DNA from: Patescibacteria group bacterium
GTDB taxonomy: Bacteria > Patescibacteriota > Patescibacteriia > PEXW01
Assembly: GCA_038063455.1 (NCBI GenBank)
Contig: JBBTVB010000002.1
Span: 1,296-65,295 of the forward strand
Direction: 5' to 3'
DNA: 64,000 nt
Positions 48,976-58,101 of this stretch are shown in pieces (position 1 is the first letter of the stretch; every line of letters starts with the position of its first letter). The notes below the pieces were generated by a model, which had not been told where the DNA came from, made no database searches, and saw only the letters and a list, made by a program, of their open reading frames with translations. The position numbers and the translations under genes were made by a program.

Positions 48976-50151
48976 TTACACTCCCAGATTCTGCACTATA
49001 ACCGTTTTTTCGGTGATGCGCAAGAGTCCGAGCTTGCGGTACAGCCAGGCAATGAGCGGGGCGAAAGCGTAAATGAGGTAGCGAAACACAATGCTGCCCA
49101 GTTGCAGGATGAAGAAGAATGACAGCGCCAAGATGGGCGGGAAAAGTTTTTGGTAGGGGTCGACGTACTTGGCAATATTCCGGGTAAGAATTTTTTCAAC
49201 GACGCTGTCCATAGTATCGCTGCCGGTGGCTGCGACGCCAAAGGTCTGTAAGAATTCTGTCCGCGCTTCATCTAAGAGTGCCCGTTGGGCTGCCGAGAGC
49301 TGGGCCAAAGCTTGCGCTTGTAAAAAAGCACGCTGCTGCTCCAAATTCGATTCCACGTGCTGGGTAACAGCACTGCTCGCTGCCGGGTTATCAAAAACCG
49401 GATTCACTCTTTTTAACTGTTCGGTAATGGCTTTATACGCCTCTTGCTTCTTCGCGTCGCTATCTAAAGTCTGGGTAATTTGCGGGGTCACAAATTCGCC
49501 AAACTTGTCGGTAACCACCAAGCTCAAAAACTGGTCTAACGTCATGCTGCCGCGGTAGCCAGGAATTTGCTTGGGCAAGTAGGCGTTGAGTCCGCTGCGA
49601 GCGGTGCTGGTTAAATCTGCTCGGACACCAGCCGCGGTTTGCGCCGATGTGCCCAGGGTGGCAAAGTAACAAAGGGATATGCCCACGAAAATAATAGCCA
49701 GCGTACCGCTTATACCAGCCGCAACCGTGCTCTGTGGTTGGGGTTGTACGCGGTTTTTCGCGTCGCGGACAATATTCCAAGCACATGCCATGAGCCCAAC
49801 GTACACACAAGCAACCGCAACGTAGGTGGCCGGCTGCAATGGGAAGAAAACCAGTAGTCCGATGCTGCAAAAGAATGCAACGCAACCAGTACCCCAAAAA
49901 TGTGTCCGCCGAAACGCCATAGCCACTATTCCAAATAGCGCCAGCATAACGCAAAAGAAAACCACAGCTATGAGTAGCTGCTGCACCTGCGCCCACCGCG
50001 GCAGGGTTACCAGGTCGTGCTGTAAGGGCAGGCTCAAACTCCACCAAAAAAGCAGGGAAAAAATAAAAGCCACCCCGCCCATAACCCAAAACTTCCAGGT
50101 AGCTGGCTTTTTCTCAACTGGTTGCTTGGCAGGGGTAACGGGGGTGATCAT
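48976..50151 (-). CDS. hypothetical polytopic membrane protein, 391 aa
   Basis: Long ORF with N- and C-terminal TM clusters. A 6-nt gap separates it from dnaJ. Confidence 0.6.
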   Translation of the reverse strand: MITPVTPAKQPVEKKPATWKFWVMGGVAFIFSLLFWWSLSLPLQHDLVTLPRWAQVQQLLIAVVFFCVMLALFGIVAMAFRRTHFWGTGCVAFFCSIGLLVFFPLQPATYVAVACVYVGLMACAWNIVRDAKNRVQPQPQSTVAAGISGTLAIIFVGISLCYFATLGTSAQTAAGVRADLTSTARSGLNAYLPKQIPGYRGSMTLDQFLSLVVTDKFGEFVTPQITQTLDSDAKKQEAYKAITEQLKRVNPVFDNPAASSAVTQHVESNLEQQRAFLQAQALAQLSAAQRALLDEARTEFLQTFGVAATGSDTMDSVVEKILTRNIAKYVDPYQKLFPPILALSFFFILQLGSIVFRYLIYAFAPLIAWLYRKLGLLRITEKTVIVQNLGV

Positions 50152-50251
50152 GTATACAGGTAGTTTACAGCATTGTTACAATCTTGACATTTTCGGGTGT
50201 ATGTCGTAGCCTGCCACAAGTTAACACAAACCTACAAAATGGAGGTCCAAC

Positions 50252-50482
50252 GTGGCTGTAGATCAAAAGTTCATTCAATCGGCAGTGTACAGACTGCACT
50301 ACAAAGGCAACCCAGTCACTGGCTCTAGCCACGACAAAGGGGTTACCAAGGCGTGCATTGCTCTAACGGTTCCACCTTACACGCTGTGGGTGGATATTAC
50401 GACTATGAACGCTTCAGATTTTGCCCCGCCTGTATACCAGCGGCGTGTAACTCATCCAGCCGAATCTCAATCTCAAGCCTAG
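50252..50482 (+). CDS. small hypothetical protein, 76 aa
   Basis: Promoter TTGACA-17-TAGCCT (50184-50212). GGAGG 6 nt before the GTG. Terminator ATCTGCC...GGCAGAT + T7 (50504-50537). Confidence 0.55.
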   Translation: MAVDQKFIQSAVYRLHYKGNPVTGSSHDKGVTKACIALTVPPYTLWVDITTMNASDFAPPVYQRRVTHPAESQSQA

Positions 50483-50595
50483 GCGCACGCATCTGTGTGC
50501 CCCATCTGCCCCACTAAACCTGAGGCAGATTTTTTTCCCCGTTTTAAAACTCCTATTCGGATGTAGGTAGCGAGCTTGCTCGCCAGTACATCATT

Positions 50596-50886
50596 TTACG
50601 CCTGAAAACCAATCCCGCTGGTGGTCGGCGCGTCGGCTTCGGTAATTTTGCCAAAAGCCTTTTCGTACTTTTCCAGGTTCTCTTTAACCGCACCAAGAAT
50701 GCGCTTCATATGGCCGGGGGAAACAATAACCCGCGCCGTAGCTACGCCCGTACCCTGCGCCGGGTAGATGTTAATGAAGTCGAGAACGAATTCCTCTTTA
50801 CTATGCGCCACACCCATCATGTTGGCGTACACGCCCTTAAGGGTAGCATCGTCAATTTTTATCTGGATTTGTTGCTGCTGGTTCAT
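50596..50886 (-). CDS. DUF3467-like small protein, 96 aa
   Basis: Y(A)N...V.....EF.LDF...........AR...SP...K.....L......YE..FG pattern. Start moved to MNQQQQ at 50886. Confidence 0.65.
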   Translation of the reverse strand: MNQQQQIQIKIDDATLKGVYANMMGVAHSKEEFVLDFINIYPAQGTGVATARVIVSPGHMKRILGAVKENLEKYEKAFGKITEADAPTTSGIGFQA

Positions 50887-51034
50887 ATGGATAAAGGGTT
50901 TAAGACGATACAACAATTGTACCACGGAGGTTGACCCAGTCCCACTTTTCCTGACAAAAAAGTGGAGCTGGGTTGACGCCAGACAGGGAATGCTTATACT
51001 TGCGTGCATAAATCAAACATACACGGAGGTACAG

Positions 51035-51322
51035 ATGACCGAGATTAGACACGCAAATAGCGTAAGATTTACAAGCCGGAACACTGGGTGTGCAGCATGC
51101 GAACTCGTGTGTGGCGGCGGCGATGGCGAGCATATCGAAACCATTAGCATCGAGGACTTTGAGAATGGCCACGCACAGATGAATAAGACGGTAGCCGATG
51201 AGGATGGCTATAGTACCAACCTGAATGTGACTACCTGCTCGTTTACGAATGCAACACAAAAGCAATTCAAAAAGTGGTTGGAGGAAAATAGTAATATTCC
51301 CCTACACACATTTATGGGTTAA
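51035..51322 (+). CDS. small hypothetical protein, 95 aa
   Basis: Promoter TTGACG-17-ATACTT (50973-51001). ACGGAGGT SD 5 nt before the ATG. Bidirectional terminator at 51342-51376. Confidence 0.55.
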   Translation: MTEIRHANSVRFTSRNTGCAACELVCGGGDGEHIETISIEDFENGHAQMNKTVADEDGYSTNLNVTTCSFTNATQKQFKKWLEENSNIPLHTFMG

Positions 51323-51374
51323 GCCCCAGCGCACACCATGCAGCCGTCGGTCTACTCTATACCGGCGGCTTTTT

Positions 51375-51662
51375 TTATTTTTGCTTTTTTGCCGTGCCCC
51401 GGTAGAGCACTTTAAACTTGAGGCGACTAACATTTTGATGTTTCTTCCCACGTTCAGCCTTCGCGCCAAGCACCCACACTTTAATGCCGCCGCTCCCTTT
51501 CTTTTCCGTTTCGCTGGTAACGGCCACGTCGAACTCAATAAACGAGCTGGCTGACCGCCGGTCGGTAGTTATGCGGAACTGGTGGTGCGTGGTCTTGCTG
51601 GCCCCATCCATGCCTTGAGCAATGGACGTGAGCGTACTGGTTATAAAGTCGGTGAGGTTCAT
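51375..51662 (-). CDS. trypco2-like (trypsin-co-occurring domain 2-like) small protein, 95 aa
   Basis: The pattern L.DFI.....S......FIEFDVAVTSETEKKGSGGIKVWVLGAKAE......H...LKFKV matches my memory of the trypco2 family consensus. No search was run. Confidence 0.5.
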   Translation of the reverse strand: MNLTDFITSTLTSIAQGMDGASKTTHHQFRITTDRRSASSFIEFDVAVTSETEKKGSGGIKVWVLGAKAERGKKHQNVSRLKFKVLYRGTAKKQK

Positions 51663-51716
51663 AGGAGTATTACTGAGTTAAACTATTAAAACTCTTGGAG
51701 GAAGTTGCTACACCCC

Positions 51717-52781
51717 TTACGATGCCGCCTTCACGCCATAGTGCGACGCGGCAAATGTGTACTGTTCCACAAAAATTTTTCGCAAGGGAACAATAGTATT
51801 CAATTCGTACAGTGCCAGCGTTGCCTCCCGATAGGCTACCTCATCCACACTTCGATAAGACAACGGTGCGCGACCATGTGCGAGAAGTACGGCATTTGCC
51901 ATGAGTCGGGCGGTACGTTTGTTGCCATCACCAAACGGCTGAATGTAGCTAATTCCCAGGAGTGCCACAAACGCCTTGGCGTAGGGTGAGGTCATACTGT
52001 TCACCGAGGTTGTCAGCTGGTCTACTGCTTCGGTAACCTGGTGTGCGTTATCCAGCGGCTGGTAACGTGAGCCAACAACACCAACGGGCTTGCTTCGAAA
52101 ACCTAGGTCAATATCTAAATCTGCAACGAGTAAGGCGTGTACCTTTTCCAGATGAGCGCGCGTGACGGTGCGGAAGTCCGTAGCGTGTGAATAAATCCAG
52201 GTAAACGCGGCCTTGTGGTTCAGGATCATTGCTGCCTCTTGCTTATCGTGTCCAACAGCAGGCGTGTTTTCCAGAAGCAACTTCTCCGTATCGAGGAGGG
52301 TGTAGGTGTTGCCCTCAATTTTTGAAGATTTCCAAGACAGCTCAATAACGAGCCGTTCGAGCTCCTTCTTCTGCATTGCTTCCGAAAGGTCCGTTGTTCG
52401 CACCTCGTATGCCTGTGTCGCCTGCTGCAGCATGTCCGCCTCCTGCTTGGAGAAAATATCAACCGGTAACTCTGGAAATAACTGGAAGTTGAAGTTCTGA
52501 AAACCGTACCGTTTATCCGGCTCCACCGCACAGTACTGCCGCGCATCAACATCAGCAAATACCCGGCCAACCGTGGCAATTTTGTACCGGGTTGCGCGGC
52601 CAGACCCGACAACCGCGAGTAAACCGGTTGCTACCATTTCCGAAAGCGCACGTTTTATCGTAACCAACGAAGTACGTAGTCCTGCTTCGGTAACTCTTGT
52701 GTGTACGGCAGAAGACGACATTTCCCCAAACTGGAGAAAGATCTTAAGCAATTGCTGCTGTTTTTCGTTTATTTCTATCAT
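51717..52781 (-). CDS. Fic/Doc-family protein with N-terminal wHTH, inhibitory SxxxEG motif and a degenerate active-site motif
   Basis: SSKIEGN fits (S/T)xxxE(G/N). The active-site position reads IQPFGDGNKRTAR where HxFx(D/E)GN(G/K)RxxR is expected, so His is replaced by Gln and the NKR is Doc-like. Confidence 0.75.
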   Translation of the reverse strand: MIEINEKQQQLLKIFLQFGEMSSSAVHTRVTEAGLRTSLVTIKRALSEMVATGLLAVVGSGRATRYKIATVGRVFADVDARQYCAVEPDKRYGFQNFNFQLFPELPVDIFSKQEADMLQQATQAYEVRTTDLSEAMQKKELERLVIELSWKSSKIEGNTYTLLDTEKLLLENTPAVGHDKQEAAMILNHKAAFTWIYSHATDFRTVTRAHLEKVHALLVADLDIDLGFRSKPVGVVGSRYQPLDNAHQVTEAVDQLTTSVNSMTSPYAKAFVALLGISYIQPFGDGNKRTARLMANAVLLAHGRAPLSYRSVDEVAYREATLALYELNTIVPLRKIFVEQYTFAASHYGVKAAS

Positions 52782-52805
52782 AATCGTATCATTAATACAC
52801 TTCTA

Positions 52806-52824
52806 TCGTATCATAATGATACGA
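52806..52824. promoter_or_regulatory. perfect palindrome upstream of the Fic-like gene (candidate operator)
   Basis: TCGTATCAT-A-ATGATACGA at 52806-52824. An extra half-site ATCGTATCAT at 52783-52792 abuts the start codon. Confidence 0.5.
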
Positions 52825-53016
52825 AAAAAGCAAGGAATTGCGTTTGATTGAACCTTTTATAAGTTGTTCCCCCGGTTCCCCGTTCTAAGTTCTCCGTTCT
52901 CTGTACTTTGATCCCTACCCCCCCGCCTGCCCCAAGAGGGACCGCAGAGGGGAACAGGTTGACTAATTAGCGAGCTCTTACTAGGCTTGCCTTGAAACAC
53001 AAGGAGGTAAAAATGA

Positions 53017-53292
53017 CTATTCGATAACGTCAATTTTGACAATCATTCCGAGGGGCAACGCTGTTTTCTTCTGGAACGGCAGCTTGACCCGCCAATCAAA
53101 GTTTCATCACTGCACATACGCACCGGGGCACTTCAGATTGGAACCACCGAAGAAATCTCGCCTATGTTCATAAAAGGTGAAACGGATATTGGGCAGGTGT
53201 TATTGCTGCCGCCCGAACATTACCAGCAGTTCCAAGCCTGGTGCATTCGAATCAACATTTCATTCGAAAACGCAAACGAGCTACCAAACTAA
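53017..53292 (+). pseudogene. 91-sense-codon open frame without a canonical in-frame start near its 5' end (frameshifted gene or recoding candidate)
   Basis: Promoter TTGACT-17-TAGGCT (52959-52987). A perfect AAGGAGGT SD plus the ATG at 53013 opens only a 4-codon ORF (MTIR*). The long frame is +1 relative to it. Terminator AAGACTCGC/GCGAGTCTT + T-run at 53311-53340. Confidence 0.45.
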
Positions 53293-53366
53293 ATTTCCCA
53301 AAACCTCATTAAGACTCGCTACGGCGAGTCTTTTCTTTTTGCCCCAAATCCCCCCGGCGAGAAATC

Positions 53367-53924
53367 CTACTCTTCAATCTGCGGCGCGAGATGGGTAAAT
53401 TCAACCAACTTCTTTTTCGCTTCGGCAATTATAGGATGCTCCCACCCTTCTGCAATTGCGGCAATGCCTTTTTCGTACTTTTGTGTGTACTCTTCGACCG
53501 TACCATGGCGAAATATTTTTTCGTACCTAGCCTCTGCAAAGCCAATAAACAATACTAAGTGATGAATGTAATCGGCACACTTTAGGGCTTTGTAGTCGGG
53601 GCTTGCAGTCTGTAAATGTGCTTGTGTGAGCTCCTGCCTTTCTGCCCAGGGAATAGTCTGGTCTACAGTCGCCTCTTCTACTAAAGTGGCTACGTCTCCA
53701 GAGAAATTTGCGCGGACCTCCTCTATCGTGCAGTCAGTATCTTCAACAACATCATGGAGCAAACCAGCAATAATGACATGCTCGGGAAAACCGTGACGTT
53801 CCAAAATCGCCGCCACGTTAAACGGGTGGGATATAAACGGCTCGGCACTATCAATCTTATACTTCTGATCTTGGTGCCACTTTGCCACGAACATTGTGGC
53901 TTTGTTGTAGAGCTGAAGATTCAT
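53367..53924 (-). CDS. HD-domain hydrolase of the RelA/SpoT type (small alarmone hydrolase-like)
   Basis: ISHPFNVAAIL...AGLLHDVVEDT...V..LVEE.T pattern. An extended -10 TGCTAGAAT (53931-53939) ends 6 nt before the ATG, which suggests a leaderless mRNA. Confidence 0.75.
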   Translation of the reverse strand: MNLQLYNKATMFVAKWHQDQKYKIDSAEPFISHPFNVAAILERHGFPEHVIIAGLLHDVVEDTDCTIEEVRANFSGDVATLVEEATVDQTIPWAERQELTQAHLQTASPDYKALKCADYIHHLVLFIGFAEARYEKIFRHGTVEEYTQKYEKGIAAIAEGWEHPIIAEAKKKLVEFTHLAPQIEE

Positions 53925-54051
53925 ATCTGTATTCTAGCACCCTCCCTCCACTTTACCCCCCCCCCGCCTGCCGCAGAAGGGCCGCAGGGGGAAGCGTAAA
54001 AAATAAAATGACCTTCTTAAAATAAGGCCTCAGAATTAGACTAAAAGCTTT

Positions 54052-54456
54052 TTAAGCGATTGCTTTCGCAAATGACCTATTTGTAGTTAACTTACCAAAA
54101 AGTAAGTCCACGATACCCCAAAATTTTTCGCCTTTGGATTCTCTACTCTTATAAAGTCTCTCAGCAAGGAGGCGCATTTCAGGTACCTCCCTAGAGTAAA
54201 CAGAGTAGAAGCTTTGAATACTAAAATATTCAATCTTTGCAGAAGTTTTATCAATTGAAATTGAAAGATTATTATCAATCGGAAAAAGAATTGATTCAGG
54301 TGAGGGTTTGGCGTTCGGATCGCTCCAGTAAAACTCATCATTTTGCTTGTCGTAAAACATCCCCCATTGACCATCTCTAAGTTGCTCAGCAGTTACTGAG
54401 AGATTATTCATGAATATAGATAAAAATTCCTGGGTGTCTAAATTAGTTTTCGGCAT
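54052..54456 (-). CDS. hypothetical protein, 134 aa (weak DUF2283-like pattern)
   Basis: AT-rich ORF overlapping the upstream ORF by 19 nt. MFYDKQNDEFYWS...ISIDKTSAKIEYFSIQSF weakly recalls YD...D.ly......vD....g.ivgiEi. Confidence 0.45.
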   Translation of the reverse strand: MPKTNLDTQEFLSIFMNNLSVTAEQLRDGQWGMFYDKQNDEFYWSDPNAKPSPESILFPIDNNLSISIDKTSAKIEYFSIQSFYSVYSREVPEMRLLAERLYKSRESKGEKFWGIVDLLFGKLTTNRSFAKAIA

Positions 54457-54920
54457 AGGTTTTCAGCAATTGTCGGAAATACATTATATGTAGTAATAAA
54501 AATTCTTTTGCCTTTTTCGTCAGTAGCAAAGCAAATTTTCAGATAATCTGGGCCTTTAGGTTTTGATTGATAAATGCTGTACATGCAGCGAATGCGTTTA
54601 TCATGATTAGAAGGACAAATGCATTTACTATTCCGAAAAGTATCCGGGATAAGGACCTCTAAAAACCGTTGACACCCACCTTCTTGATACCACCATTTAA
54701 ATGGATTCCTTCGATGATCTTCGAGGTTCTTTTTGTCGAGCAATAATCTATAGCCTGAAAACCCACCTTTGTCAAGGACTAGATCAAGAACATACTCTTT
54801 TGGGCTGCCGGTAAACAAAATGTTTGACTGATTAAAAAACAAGAATTTTGCGTATTCAAAGGGGTTCGCACAAAGACATTCATTGACCTTAATGTACCAC
54901 GTAATCGCAGAGTCGGCCAA
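54438..54920 (-). CDS. hypothetical protein, 160 aa (weak DUF4258/toxin-like C-terminus)
   Basis: AT-rich ORF with a TTG start and no in-frame ATG early on. The C-terminal KICFATDEKGKRIFITTYNV resembles the ...viTvy ending of DUF4258-type toxins. Confidence 0.4.
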   Translation of the reverse strand: MADSAITWYIKVNECLCANPFEYAKFLFFNQSNILFTGSPKEYVLDLVLDKGGFSGYRLLLDKKNLEDHRRNPFKWWYQEGGCQRFLEVLIPDTFRNSKCICPSNHDKRIRCMYSIYQSKPKGPDYLKICFATDEKGKRIFITTYNVFPTIAENLCRKLI

Positions 54921-54962
54921 TTGTCCCCGCCTGCCGCATAGGGGAAGTAGTTGATTTATTCT

Positions 54963-56144
54963 TCATTCTAAATTAGGAACGTGCCCGTAATTCGACAAAC
55001 CCTGATTTAATAAATTATATATCTCTGTATCAACGATTGGATTTTTTGAAAAAATTGGCAGTACAGCCACATGCTCTGCGGGTTCAGCCTCTTTATCGGT
55101 TTGGTAATGAAACGAAAAGTTGGTAAAAAATATCCCATTTTCTTCTGAGGGGTTGCTTTGATCATGAGCACCAAGAGAGTCAACATTCCTTTTAATGTCT
55201 TCAAACCAAGGTTTATCCGGAAAATTCATGCCTGGGGTCAATGGAGCATTGAGATCAATAAATATCATGAACGGTATACCCCCTGGATTTTGTGCTAGGG
55301 CTTCTTCCAGCTTATCACGCACATCCGCTCTCATTAGCTCCTCAAGGTTCGCTGTTCCTGGTGTATGTATAACACCATGCCTATGTCGGCTTTTTGCTTC
55401 AACAGCAATCGATATATTTTTTCCTTTGTGTGTTGCAATGAACTCACAATGTGGTGCTTTGGGGTTACCACGGTCCAAAAATTCAATTTCAAAACCCAGG
55501 CGCGTGAAAATTGCAGCAATTGCTATTTCATACCTTGCACCTTGGTACTGATCTAAATTTTTCAAGCGATTAATCTGCCTTTGGAATAATTTTGCTCTAT
55601 GTTGCACACAATAAACATCAAAGGCCAACGCAAAAAGGGATTTGGACCAACCATCAGGCATTGCTCCCCATCGCTCACCCACTCTATTTGACGGTAGAGC
55701 ATTCCTTTTCTTCCAGTCATTATAATGAATGTAACATTGAATAATATAATGTTGTTCGGACTCGGGTAATGTTAGTTGTTCTTTTACCCAAGGCTCTCCG
55801 AGAGTCACCCCAAGTAACTCAATAATGAACTCATGAAATGTCTGCTTTAATGGTAACGAATGATATAGCCGCCCGCCTACAGCACGTACACGCTTCCCCT
55901 GGTACTCTGTTTGGATATGAGGAAGGTAATACCCCTTTGACTCTAGGGCGGCTTGTTCAGCCTGTATTTTTTGGAAATGACTGATTACCTCTTGCATATC
56001 TTCCTGCGTAGGACGCTTTTCATCTTGACCTAAGTGACATTTTTTATATTTTTTTCCACTTCCACAATAACAGGGGTCATTCCTGCCAATTTTGCTCTTT
56101 CCGAATTTTCTCATATGAATAGAATTTTGACTTAATTGCAGCAT
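54963..56144 (-). CDS. SEC-C motif protein with PD-(D/E)xK nuclease-like C-terminal region
   Basis: N-terminal GRNDPCYCGSGKKYKKCH. Later YEIAIAAIF...EIEFLD...CEFIA....ISIAVEAKSR fits an E/D...ExK nuclease core. AT-rich. The start may be the ATG at 56114. Confidence 0.65.
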   Translation of the reverse strand: MLQLSQNSIHMRKFGKSKIGRNDPCYCGSGKKYKKCHLGQDEKRPTQEDMQEVISHFQKIQAEQAALESKGYYLPHIQTEYQGKRVRAVGGRLYHSLPLKQTFHEFIIELLGVTLGEPWVKEQLTLPESEQHYIIQCYIHYNDWKKRNALPSNRVGERWGAMPDGWSKSLFALAFDVYCVQHRAKLFQRQINRLKNLDQYQGARYEIAIAAIFTRLGFEIEFLDRGNPKAPHCEFIATHKGKNISIAVEAKSRHRHGVIHTPGTANLEELMRADVRDKLEEALAQNPGGIPFMIFIDLNAPLTPGMNFPDKPWFEDIKRNVDSLGAHDQSNPSEENGIFFTNFSFHYQTDKEAEPAEHVAVLPIFSKNPIVDTEIYNLLNQGLSNYGHVPNLE

Positions 56145-56150
56145 TAACTA

Positions 56151-56176
56151 AAAAGGGGGCTGAGAGCCCCCTTTTT
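56151..56176. terminator. bidirectional terminator after dnaK
   Basis: AAAA-GGGGGCT-GAG-AGCCCCC-TTTTT. Confidence 0.85.
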
Positions 56177-56178
56177 AG

Positions 56179-58101
56179 TTACTTCTTAACCTCCTCGTAC
56201 TTCGCATCCACCGGCTCGTCCTTAGACCCTGAGCCTGTCGAAGGGTCATCCTTCTTATCCCCTCCTGCCGCAGGCCCCGAGCTTGTCGAGGGGTCGGCTT
56301 TCTGGTCCTTGTACATCGCCTGACCAATCTTCTGAATCGTCTGCCCCAAATCATCCGTGGCTTTCTTGATGGCATCCTTGTCCTCGCCATCCTTCACCTT
56401 TTTCACGGCCTCGATCTTTTCTTCAACTTCCTTCTTCACGTCGGCCGGGACTTTGTCACCGCCGTCTTTTATCGCTTTCTCCGCCGTGAACACCAAGCTA
56501 TCCGCACCGTTGCGCACGTCAATAAGCTCGCGCTTCTGCTTGTCCTCGTCCGCGTGCAGGGCGGCATCCTGCTTCATGCGTTCCACTTCGTCTTTGGATA
56601 AGCCGGACGACGCCGTAATGGTAATGCTCTGCTCTTTGCCGCTGGCCTTGTCTTTGGCCTTCACGTTGAGGATGCCGTTGGCGTCAATGTCGAACGTCAC
56701 TTCCACCTGCGGCACGCCGCGCGGCGCCGGCGGGATGCCGGACAGGATGAACCGGCCCAGGGACTTGTTGTCCCCAGCCATGGGTCGCTCCCCTTGCAGG
56801 ACGTGAATTTCCACCGAGGTTTGATTATCCGCGGCCGTGGAGAACACTTGGGACTTTGAGGTGGGGATAGTGGTATTGCGCTCGATGAGCGGGGTGGACA
56901 CGCTGCCCAGGGTTTCCAGGCCCACGGAGAGCGGGGTCACGTCCAGCAACAGCACGTCGCGTACTTCGCCTTGCAGCACGCCGGCTTGCACGGCTGCGCC
57001 AATGGCCACCACTTCGTCCGGGTTCACGCCCAGGTGGGGCTTTTTGCCGAAAAACTTTTCTACAGTTGATAGCACCAACGGCATACGAGTCATGCCGCCG
57101 ACCATGATCACTTCGTTAATGTCGGCGGGCGTAAGGCCGGCGTCTGCCAAAGCCTTCTTGGTTGGTTCCAGGGTTTGCTCCACCAGGTCGCCCACCAGCT
57201 GCTCCAACTTGGCGCGGGAGAGCTTGAGTACCAAGTGCTTGGGGCCGGACGCATCCGTGGTAATAAACGGCTGGTTGATCTCGGTTTCCGTGGTGGTGGA
57301 AAGCTCGTGCTTGGCCTTTTCCGCGCTCTCCTTAAGGCGCTGCAGGGCCATCTGGTCGTTGCCCAGATCAATGCCCTGGTCCTTCTTGAACTCGTCGATA
57401 ATCCAGTGGATAATCCGCTGGTCAAAGTCGTCGCCGCCCAGGTGGGTGTCGCCGTTGGTGGCTTTCACTTCCACCGTGTCGTTGGACACTTCCAGGATGG
57501 AAATGTCGAACGTGCCGCCGCCCAGGTCGTACACCGCAATTTTCTCGTCCTTCTTCTTGTTAAAGCCGTAGGCGAGCGCCGCGGCCGTGGGTTCGTTGAT
57601 AATGCGCTTCACCGTAAGGCCGGCAATTTCGCCGGCGTCCTTGGTGGCTTGGCGCTGACTATCGTCAAAATAGGCAGGAACCGTGATGACCGCTTCGGTA
57701 ATTTTCTCACCGAGCTTGGCTTCGGCGTCTTCTTTCATTTTTTGGAGGACGAGCGCGGAGATTTCTTGGGGGGCCATAGATTTGTCACCCATGCTCACTT
57801 TAACGCCTTCGCCTGCTTGGACAACTTTAAACGGAAAGACTTTGACGTCGCGTTGGACTTCTTCGTCGTTCCAGTGCCGGCCAATCAGGCGCTTGATGGA
57901 GTAGAGCGTATTTTGCGGGTTCACCACGGCTTGGCGCTTGGCCACTTGGCCCACCAGGCGCTCGCCGGTTTTGGAAATAGCTACAACAGAAGGCGTGGTG
58001 CGGTTGCCTTCCTTGTTTTCTAGTACCTTTGGCTCACCGCCTTCGATGATGGCCATGCAGGAGTTGGTTGTACCGAGGTCGATACCGAGAATTTTTGACA
58101 T
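56179..58101 (-). CDS. dnaK: chaperone DnaK (Hsp70)
   Basis: [17 protein letters not shown] and VGGMTRMP blocks. 640 aa. Confidence 0.97.

Follow-up and report, generated by a model that had tools for sequence, protein, structure and literature searches.

A horizontally acquired insert in a Patescibacteria heat-shock gene cluster carries a predicted SEC-C nuclease gene and a toxin-antitoxin-like gene pair

The window analyzed here, a 64-kb stretch of DNA from a Patescibacteria group bacterium, contains an AT-rich block (~54000–56150) with sharp edges, in which three genes, termed A, B, and C, follow one another on the minus strand. A encodes a protein with an N-terminal SEC-C zinc-binding motif, and B and C encode two small proteins. 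An earlier reading of the letters alone (hereafter the original prediction) had described three same-strand open reading frames (ORFs), the last two overlapping by 19 nt, and all of this was confirmed in the sequence. The 1-kb bins starting at 54001 and 55001 have GC contents of 0.373 and 0.412, the two lowest of the 64 bins; the next-lowest bin has 0.460, and the mean over the window is 0.526. The GC content at third codon positions (GC3) is 0.34, 0.33, and 0.34 for A, B, and C, respectively, versus 0.74, 0.65, and 0.60 for dnaK, grpE, and dnaJ. Because of these two features, the A/B/C segment is regarded as horizontally acquired DNA, and its earlier description as the most compositionally foreign segment of the window holds. 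On the minus strand, the gene order is hrcA, grpE, dnaK, A, B, C, an HD_4-domain gene, a Fic gene, a Trypco2-domain gene, a DUF3467 gene, a gene for a 391-aa membrane protein, and dnaJ (Table 1). The insert is best read as two independent accessory units lying side by side, namely A, a probable defence nuclease gene, and B-C, a toxin-antitoxin (TA)-like pair.

Table 1. Coordinates of the genes, predicted sites, hairpins, and repeats in and around the A/B/C insert (window positions)
Feature	Position	Strand	Remarks
Gene A	54963..56114	-	383 aa + stop; ORF also opens at ATG 56144 (393 aa)
SEC-C zinc-binding motif of A, GRNDPCYCGSGKKYKKCH	56031..56084	-	Pfam PF02810
Predicted PD-(D/E)xK-like core of A	55245..55553	-	Helix, three strands, helix, strand
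Codons of A residues	E196 55527-55529; E224 55443-55445; E239 55398-55400; K241 55392-55394; D287 55254-55256	-	
Gene B	54438..54842	-	134 aa from TTG 54842; ORF reaches TTG 54920 (160 aa)
Putative catalytic pair of B	His69 54714-54716; Thr144 54489-54491	-	Candidate residues
Gene C	54052..54456	-	134 aa, pI 5.2
Overlap of B end and C start	54438..54456	-	19 nt
Terminator-like hairpin, dnaK stop to A	56140..56186	both	22-nt arms, 91% complementary, T-runs on each side
GC-rich 20-nt repeat copy 1, CCCCGCCTGCCGCATAGGGG	54925..54944		A stop to B; 3' half of the hairpin element only
Terminator-like hairpin and T-run	54010..54029	-	Directly after C stop
GC-rich hairpin element with repeat copy 2 (53962-53981)	53951..54001	-	C stop to HD_4 gene
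Repeat copy 3, looser	52921-52940		Between HD_4 and Fic genes
dnaK	56179-58101	-	A/B/C block directly downstream
HD_4-domain gene	53367-53924	-	
Fic gene	51717-52781	-	
Trypco2-domain gene	51375-51662	-	95 aa
DUF3467 gene	50596-50925	-	
Membrane protein gene	48976-50151	-	391 aa

The ORF of A opens at two ATG codons, and the downstream one, ATG 56114, is most likely the start, giving a protein of 383 aa, because the identical NCBI protein P0001 is called at this length, the relatives start 5–10 residues before the SEC-C motif, and ATG 56144 lies inside a hairpin. This terminator-like element between dnaK and A suggests that A is transcribed apart from dnaK, and it argues against a start at ATG 56144. 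Thus, an ORF of the 393 aa given by the original prediction does exist, but the protein itself is likely the 383-aa form, which is used for residue numbers below. The SEC-C motif recognized earlier at the N-terminus was confirmed: A matches PF02810 at aa 21–38 with 36.6 bits (cut-off 20.4, E 4e-9), the zinc ligands C25, C27, C36, and H37 are all present, and 49 of 50 aligned relatives match as well. A profile of A searched against PDB sequences matched the SEC-C peptides of SecA and YchJ and nothing except SEC-C. In locus L004 (8924–9958, corresponding to window positions 54963–55997), A is called at only 344 aa, so that the SEC-C motif is lost; P0001 retains it.

An alignment of 50 relatives with 40–63% identity revealed that E196 (in YQGARYE), E224 and F225 (CEF), and E239, K241, and S242 (VEAKS) are invariant, as are D287 and N289 (FIDxN) and T331, N332, H336, and Y337 (FTNxSxHY). 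The AlphaFold model of A built on this alignment has a pLDDT of 92.8 and a pTM of 0.88. In this model, helix 190–205, strands 208–212, 225–229, and 234–242, helix 266–273, and strand 282–287 are arranged in the order alpha-beta-beta-beta-alpha-beta; E196 lies in the first helix, E224 opens strand 225–229, and E239-x-K241 is located in the third strand. Both the order of the core elements and the placement of the candidate catalytic residues correspond to the pattern of PD-(D/E)xK nucleases. The original prediction had proposed a restriction-endonuclease-like core with an E...D...ExK signature; its segments YEIAIA, EFLD, and VEAK are indeed present and invariant or nearly so, but the model suggests E224 as the middle acid rather than D214, a residue kept in at least 90% of the 50 relatives. 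In comparison to nucleases of the Mrr, Hjc, and RecU type, A shares the predicted core topology, the acid in helix 1, the acid at the start of strand 2, and the ExK of strand 3, whereas it has Glu in place of the usual Asp at strand 2, and neither its 185-aa N-terminal region, consisting of SEC-C and helices, nor the C-terminal FTNxSxHY motif has a counterpart in those enzymes. The top Foldseek matches in the PDB were SfsA, HindIII, Hjc, FokI, DdmD, RecU, FAN1, and MunI, all of which are PD-(D/E)xK enzymes; the match to the Hjc resolvase had a probability of 0.98 over 56 columns with a root mean square deviation (rmsd) of 2.9. The Pfam model Mrr_cat (PF04471) touches aa 188–250 at E 0.079 (13.5 bits, cut-off 21), and scans of A with Pfam, NCBIfam, and PADLOC returned only SEC-C and this sub-threshold hit. 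A nuclease fold is likely, though not established.

The family of A is large and unannotated, and databases label it merely "SEC-C domain-containing protein". A search of a 5.8-billion-protein collection yielded 1,202 relatives at E ≤ 1e-3, nearly all of 375–410 aa with the same N-terminal motif. A pattern scan with one genome per species found 203 relatives among 185,579 species representatives, distributed over Patescibacteria, Actinomycetota, Planctomycetota, Acidobacteriota, Bacillota (with one cultured Paenibacillus), Nitrospirota, Omnitrophota, and other phyla. A few relatives occur on proteobacterial plasmids, as revealed by tblastn against PLSDB. Culturable bacteria with a relative are Paenibacillus sp. 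Soil787, Caballeronia (p2), and Agrobacterium (pAt1D1609b). Carriage by phages was considered and dropped, as 2.9 million viral contigs contained a single distant match with 28% identity.

To characterize the surroundings, ORFs were called in 80 loci of A relatives, and their products were clustered. No neighbour is conserved across the 80 loci, and A has no fixed partner gene. Large serine recombinases are present in 8 of the loci, all from Patescibacteria and often directly adjoining, and Resolvase and Recombinase are the commonest families among 149 neighbours lying no more than two genes from A relatives. Type I restriction-modification (R-M) genes encoding HsdM/HsdS, confirmed with Pfam, were found in 7 loci (~9%). 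In L009 (3283–7161), the order is hsdM-hsdS-A with a gap of 8 nt; in L043 (4775–8567), A lies between hsdS and hsdM; and in L040 (1453–7110), hsdM, a Fic gene, hsdS, and a short ATPase fragment precede A. A further relative, on plasmid p2 of Caballeronia (L147), is located between a tyrosine recombinase gene and hsdS-hsdM-hsdR. Fic proteins, AAA ATPases, and Ser/Thr kinases are each encoded in a small number of A loci. The PADLOC summary of the neighbours is dominated by redundant methyltransferase models and is uninformative by itself. In two Patescibacteria loci, L016 (4421–7507) and L019 (4361–7533), the A relative has a complete gene for a large serine recombinase on one side and a short recombinase-like fragment on the other. 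A may be located within integrative elements or at their borders. At another locus, L001 (2265–6140), P0002, which at 63% identity is the nearest A relative from a different genome, shares 26 nt with an upstream gene of ~392 aa that has no Pfam match, and P0002 lies two genes away from a Mrr_cat restriction-endonuclease gene.

A is probably a stand-alone defence nuclease; the case for defence comes from relatives found repeatedly within type I R-M operons and next to large serine recombinases. A patchy spread, a foreign composition, and variable surroundings rich in mobile and R-M genes together form the usual signature of a defence gene, and they point to such a role for A. In the proposed mechanism, A would be a metal-dependent nuclease with E196, E224, and E239-x-K241 as its active site, acting alone as a defence or abortive-infection effector. 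The protein would be present constitutively with its activity gated; the SEC-C knuckle could serve as a tether or sensor and is a candidate for the gating contact.

A less favored explanation, which we consider somewhat unlikely, is that A is a housekeeping or regulatory protein using a degenerate restriction-enzyme-like fold to bind rather than to cut, for example a ribosome-, SecA/SecB-, or chaperone-associated factor tethered by its SEC-C, or an accessory protein of mobile elements in DNA repair or recombination. SEC-C is also found in SecA, YecA, YchJ, and a methionyl-aminopeptidase model, and the adjacency to serine recombinases could point to a recombination role. The fold matches are weak, and PADLOC matches nothing outside SEC-C. 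A also directly follows dnaK in the window, and DnaK is encoded nearby in a second locus (L073), but such adjacency is seen in just 2 of the 80 loci. The rarity and patchiness of the family, together with the foreign composition here and the varied neighbourhoods that include R-M operons, argue against a housekeeping function, and the strict invariance of E/E/ExK favors catalysis over mere binding.

PrrC is a back-up effector that rides with an R-M system and combines an ABC-ATPase with an anticodon nuclease. A relatives resemble PrrC/RloC in lying inside hsdM-hsdS operons (L009, L040, and L043) and beside hsdRMS on a plasmid. They differ from PrrC in fold and likely substrate; moreover, R-M genes accompany only a minority of A loci, and A in the window is not near R-M genes.

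In architecture, A resembles Rugutis, a single-gene, abortive-infection-like antiphage protein of 359 aa (pUCCL633_059) from a lactococcal plasmid, which has an N-terminal SEC-C and whose trigger is the large terminase of the phage (PMC11381338, PMC12184496). The comparison is one of architecture alone: both are encoded by single genes for ~360–380 aa in mobile or accessory DNA, both carry SEC-C at the extreme N-terminus, and for both, AlphaFold gives a confident model that, outside SEC-C, matches nothing in the PDB significantly. Rugutis, however, has proven antiphage activity and a terminase trigger, whereas the defence role of A is a prediction; conversely, no nuclease-like core has been described for Rugutis, whereas A has a predicted one. 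Searches of PLSDB by tblastn with A, a Paenibacillus (Firmicutes) relative, and the family consensus gave no match in Lactococcus, and the other SEC-C proteins found on plasmids have architectures different from that of A. Only tentatively might the A family be the superfamily that contains Rugutis, comprising over 1,000 proteins with SEC-C at the N-terminus in groups ranging from Patescibacteria to Proteobacteria. If so, the E...E...ExK core would be the missing effector, a terminase-triggered suicide or restriction nuclease, and would explain how an antiphage gene already known works; the family would then represent a common defence encoded by a single gene, which accompanies type I R-M operons and, within Patescibacteria, large serine recombinases.

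Unlike A, which has no fixed partner, B and C are consistently paired. The most likely start of B is TTG 54842, because the relatives begin there and residues 1–38 of the long form (160 aa) model at a pLDDT below 50; residue numbers in B nevertheless refer to the long form. The overlap of B and C suggests translational coupling. A word-index protein search for B and C found next to nothing, and an exhaustive HMMER search of 1.84 billion representative proteins was carried out with B and C concatenated as the query. It yielded six relatives of B (30–63% identity) and about ten of C, so that B-C is a very rare family with ~6–10 cluster representatives in that collection. A hand-made degenerate DNA pattern for YDK..DEF.W hit 52 metagenomic loci, of which only L117, a duplicate of L088, is genuine. 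In all nine B-C loci, B lies directly before C on the same strand, with an overlap of 19–40 nt in the eight loci where both genes are called; the pair predicted originally is a strictly linked unit of its own. The closest relative (B 63%, C 76% identity) likewise has a 19-nt overlap. The most distant relative of C is P0138. With 73.8 bits against a profile of the C family from which it had been left out, it is a firm member; its overlapping upstream gene, of 140 aa, scores 21 bits over its full length against the B-family profile. In the ninth locus (L152, 1504–1900), the C relative P0137 is preceded by a B-like frame without a gene call; P0137 is annotated with 31 additional N-terminal residues, which probably stem from a wrong start call. 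In five of the six other loci compared, B-C has a higher AT content than the flanking DNA, as a mobile cassette would.

The structures of B and C were modelled as a direct fusion chain, with unpaired alignment rows from 17 sequences. The model has a pLDDT of 83, with blocks of ~88–97 over the B core (aa 41–160) and ~89–96 over the beta domain of C. B consists of two short strands, a helix (63–70), a longer helix (83–97), and a sheet of three to four strands ending at 139–148. Foldseek searches of the fusion against the PDB gave Mycobacterium tuberculosis RelE1/RelE2 (probability 0.87–0.90, target template modelling (TM) score 0.50–0.53, rmsd ~4.3, 90 columns), as well as HigB2, YoeB, and Thermus thermophilus RelE as other compact matches, all of these toxins at E ~0.07–0.15, with ~0.09–0.15 for RelE1/RelE2. 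Among viral models, the fusion matched "Phage MuF C-terminal domain" proteins with a probability of 1.00 and E 1.9e-3, and further matches were MuF-type minor capsid proteins and PolyVal proteins. MuF-C is a phage BECR (PBECR) RNase domain with a His/Thr configuration (Iyer et al., PMC5512222). B has the same layout of a helix His and a last-strand Thr: His69 in helix 63–70 is kept in seven of eight members, with Lys in the remaining one, and Thr144 in strand 139–148, which belongs to the "ITTY" ending pointed out in the original prediction, is Thr or Ser in all eight and is followed by Tyr or Phe. In addition, B proteins are uniformly basic (pI 9.3–9.7).

DUF4258, the family proposed originally for B, has been placed in the BECR or RelE/ParE group (PMC11980606; bioRxiv 10.64898/2026.08.28.747851). 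A kinship in fold is plausible from the RelE/HigB/YoeB and MuF-C matches, whereas membership is not supported: none of the eight B members (window B, six relatives, and the L149 partner) matches DUF4258 (PF14076) at E ≤ 10. Like DUF4258, RelE, HigB, YoeB, and MuF-C, B combines a predicted helix-plus-sheet core with a helix His and a last-strand Thr/Ser followed by an aromatic residue, and like BECR toxins of TA systems, it is a basic protein in an overlapping two-gene cassette. It differs from those toxins in that no member matches any RelE/ParE Pfam model either, in its length of ~130 aa, and in an extra N-terminal beta hairpin and a conserved S-x-C-x-C-P-S-N-H segment (window 54603–54626). 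Neither this segment nor a Cys that is invariant in the C-terminal helix (long-form C156) is a feature of RelE-type toxins; they may form a metal site or a disulfide. The gene order also differs, with the putative toxin first in B-C, whereas DUF4258 is listed with the antitoxin first (PMC11980606).

The model of C comprises a long N-terminal helix, five strands (aa 29–78), and four C-terminal helices. In the BFVD, the fusion matched a siphovirus DUF2283 protein (A0A8S5U1D1; probability 1.00, target TM score 0.58, E 6e-3) and a Pandoravirus DUF2283 protein (probability 1.00, E 2e-2). P0138 reaches 20.4 bits with the Pfam DUF2283 model (PF10049; cut-off 23, E 5.8e-4) over profile positions 3–47 of 49, whereas neither window C nor nine other relatives match this model. 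The earlier comparison of C to DUF2283 is thus favored by the fold matches, which fall short of E ≤ 0.001, and by the sub-threshold hit of a distant relative, rather than by a Pfam match of window C itself. C shares with DUF2283 (YuzE-like) proteins the YD...D.(L/F)Y(F/W) and IE.f.I motifs on a small beta domain, but with an N-terminal helix of ~30 aa and a C-terminal helical extension of ~50 aa, it is ~2.7 times as long as the domain model, and even the best member of the family remains 2.6 bits under the Pfam cut-off. C proteins are mostly acidic to neutral (pI 4.7–6.7, one exception). Searches of PDB sequences with the B profile and the C profile gave noise only. Many C proteins, including P0123, P0129, P0133, P0136, P0138, and window C (54055–54078), end in small hydrophobic residues such as AIA, CCA, QAA, AAA, or ACA. 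Speculatively, these ends resemble ssrA-like degradation signals, which would fit a labile antitoxin.

From the charges and the fold assignments, B-C appears to be a new, rare TA-like family in which B is the predicted BECR/RelE-like toxin and C the predicted antitoxin. According to this model, B and C would be co-translated from one transcript as a type II cassette. B, with a BECR fold of the RelE/colicin-D/phage MuF-C type, would cut RNA via H69 and T144 in a metal-independent manner, and C would bind B and keep it inactive through its DUF2283-like beta domain and helical arms. Alternatively, B and C could be the two subunits of a complex that binds or processes RNA, its BECR domain being inactive as has been proposed for MuF-C of phage Mu, or C could be the effector. 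BECR domains can indeed bind RNA without catalytic activity (PMC5512222), one member has Lys in place of His69, and C is larger than classical antitoxins and has no DNA-binding domain. We consider this unlikely in view of the strict pairing (9/9 loci) with gene overlap, the opposite charges of the two proteins, and the Thr/Ser kept in the last strand of all members; AT-richness against the flanks in most genomes and a very sparse distribution are, moreover, typical of mobile TA cassettes, and an existing annotation gives DUF2283 (YuzE) as a predicted antitoxin (PMC12521503).

The original prediction had joined all three genes in one module, a nuclease-based defence gene with its own addiction module, which would act or be regulated together. 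The three-gene module is largely refuted because A and B-C do not co-occur: neither B nor C was found beside A relatives in any of the 80 loci (tblastn, E ≤ 10), P0002 and P0003 (63% identical to A) having other neighbours and no B-C, and A was not found upstream of B-C at any of the four loci with readable upstream DNA (L086, L088, L090, and L149), where unrelated genes occur instead. A GC-rich repeat also lies between A and B. The adjacency of the three genes on one strand and their common GC3 would fit a single system; nevertheless, the common GC3 suggests donors alike in composition or joint arrival and implies no joint function. A single three-gene system is, therefore, very improbable. 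The idea that A and B-C are alternative cargo of a Peptidase_S51 hot spot was also dropped, as the two S51 proteins are only 24% identical.

The insert is instead read as two independent accessory units, A as a metal-dependent defence nuclease and B-C as a TA-like pair, with a probability of roughly 55%. Several results weigh against this reading. With equal GC3 values, A, B, and C could have arrived jointly, and the closest B-C relative has a cut gene of 150 aa ~110 nt upstream, equal to the A-B spacing here, whose identity is unreadable, so that A-B-C synteny is possible at that locus. For A, Foldseek, named by the original prediction as a check, returned PD-(D/E)xK enzymes throughout the top PDB matches, but every one at E 0.014 or worse; no fold match of A, B, or C was found at E ≤ 0.001. 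Mrr_cat is touched by only 2 of the 50 A relatives, both below threshold (best E 0.026). PADLOC, also suggested earlier as a check, gave no support: in PADLOC-DB 2.0, the models E2, E1-E2, and PDC-S12 match the SEC-C stretch of A only (aa 11–61), B and C match none, and no B or C family member reaches the thresholds of Pfam, NCBIfam, or PADLOC. For B-C, only 17 sequences underlie the model, which is that of a fused chain, and Foldseek does not report to which half of the fusion each match aligns. Finally, no DNA-binding domain is recognizable in C, which is unusual for a type II antitoxin.

Patescibacteria have tiny genomes with few recognized defence or addiction systems; each accessory unit kept in such a genome is therefore informative. 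The results overturn no current ideas, and their value lies in annotation. For the A family, a specific candidate active site can now be named, and the genomic context of its members is defence-like. B-C, which escapes the current Pfam, NCBIfam, and PADLOC models, links a BECR-type RNase fold to a DUF2283-type partner and thereby gives both DUF groups a concrete, testable role.

Gene boundaries in and next to the insert carry a GC-rich repeat with the plus-strand consensus CCCCGCCTGCCGCA(G/T)A(A/G)GGG. It has three matches in 64 kb, versus 0.06 expected, and these lie at three consecutive gene boundaries (A/B-C, C/HD_4, and HD_4/Fic). Copies 1 and 2 are identical at 18 of 20 positions and bracket B-C as direct repeats. 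Copies 2 and 3 extend to gene-strand hairpins of ~45 nt with −38.1 and −31 kcal/mol (z −3.1 and −2.4, respectively). The repeats could be recombination scars, cassette boundaries, REP-like elements, or transcript-end structures; no comparable flanking repeats were found at other B-C loci. An Rfam scan of 50–57 kb gave nothing above noise. Between the HD_4 stop and the Fic start, 585 nt (52782–53366) contain no convincing ORF and include a terminator-like hairpin (53311–53332) and the third GC-rich hairpin; this segment could be a decayed gene or a non-coding RNA.

The insert belongs to ~7 kb of minus-strand accessory genes (48976–56144) located between dnaK and dnaJ in the hrcA-grpE-dnaK...dnaJ heat-shock cluster. 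HD_4 is presumably the HD hydrolase domain of RelA/SpoT-type enzymes, and several domains encoded by these accessory genes are typical of conflict systems.

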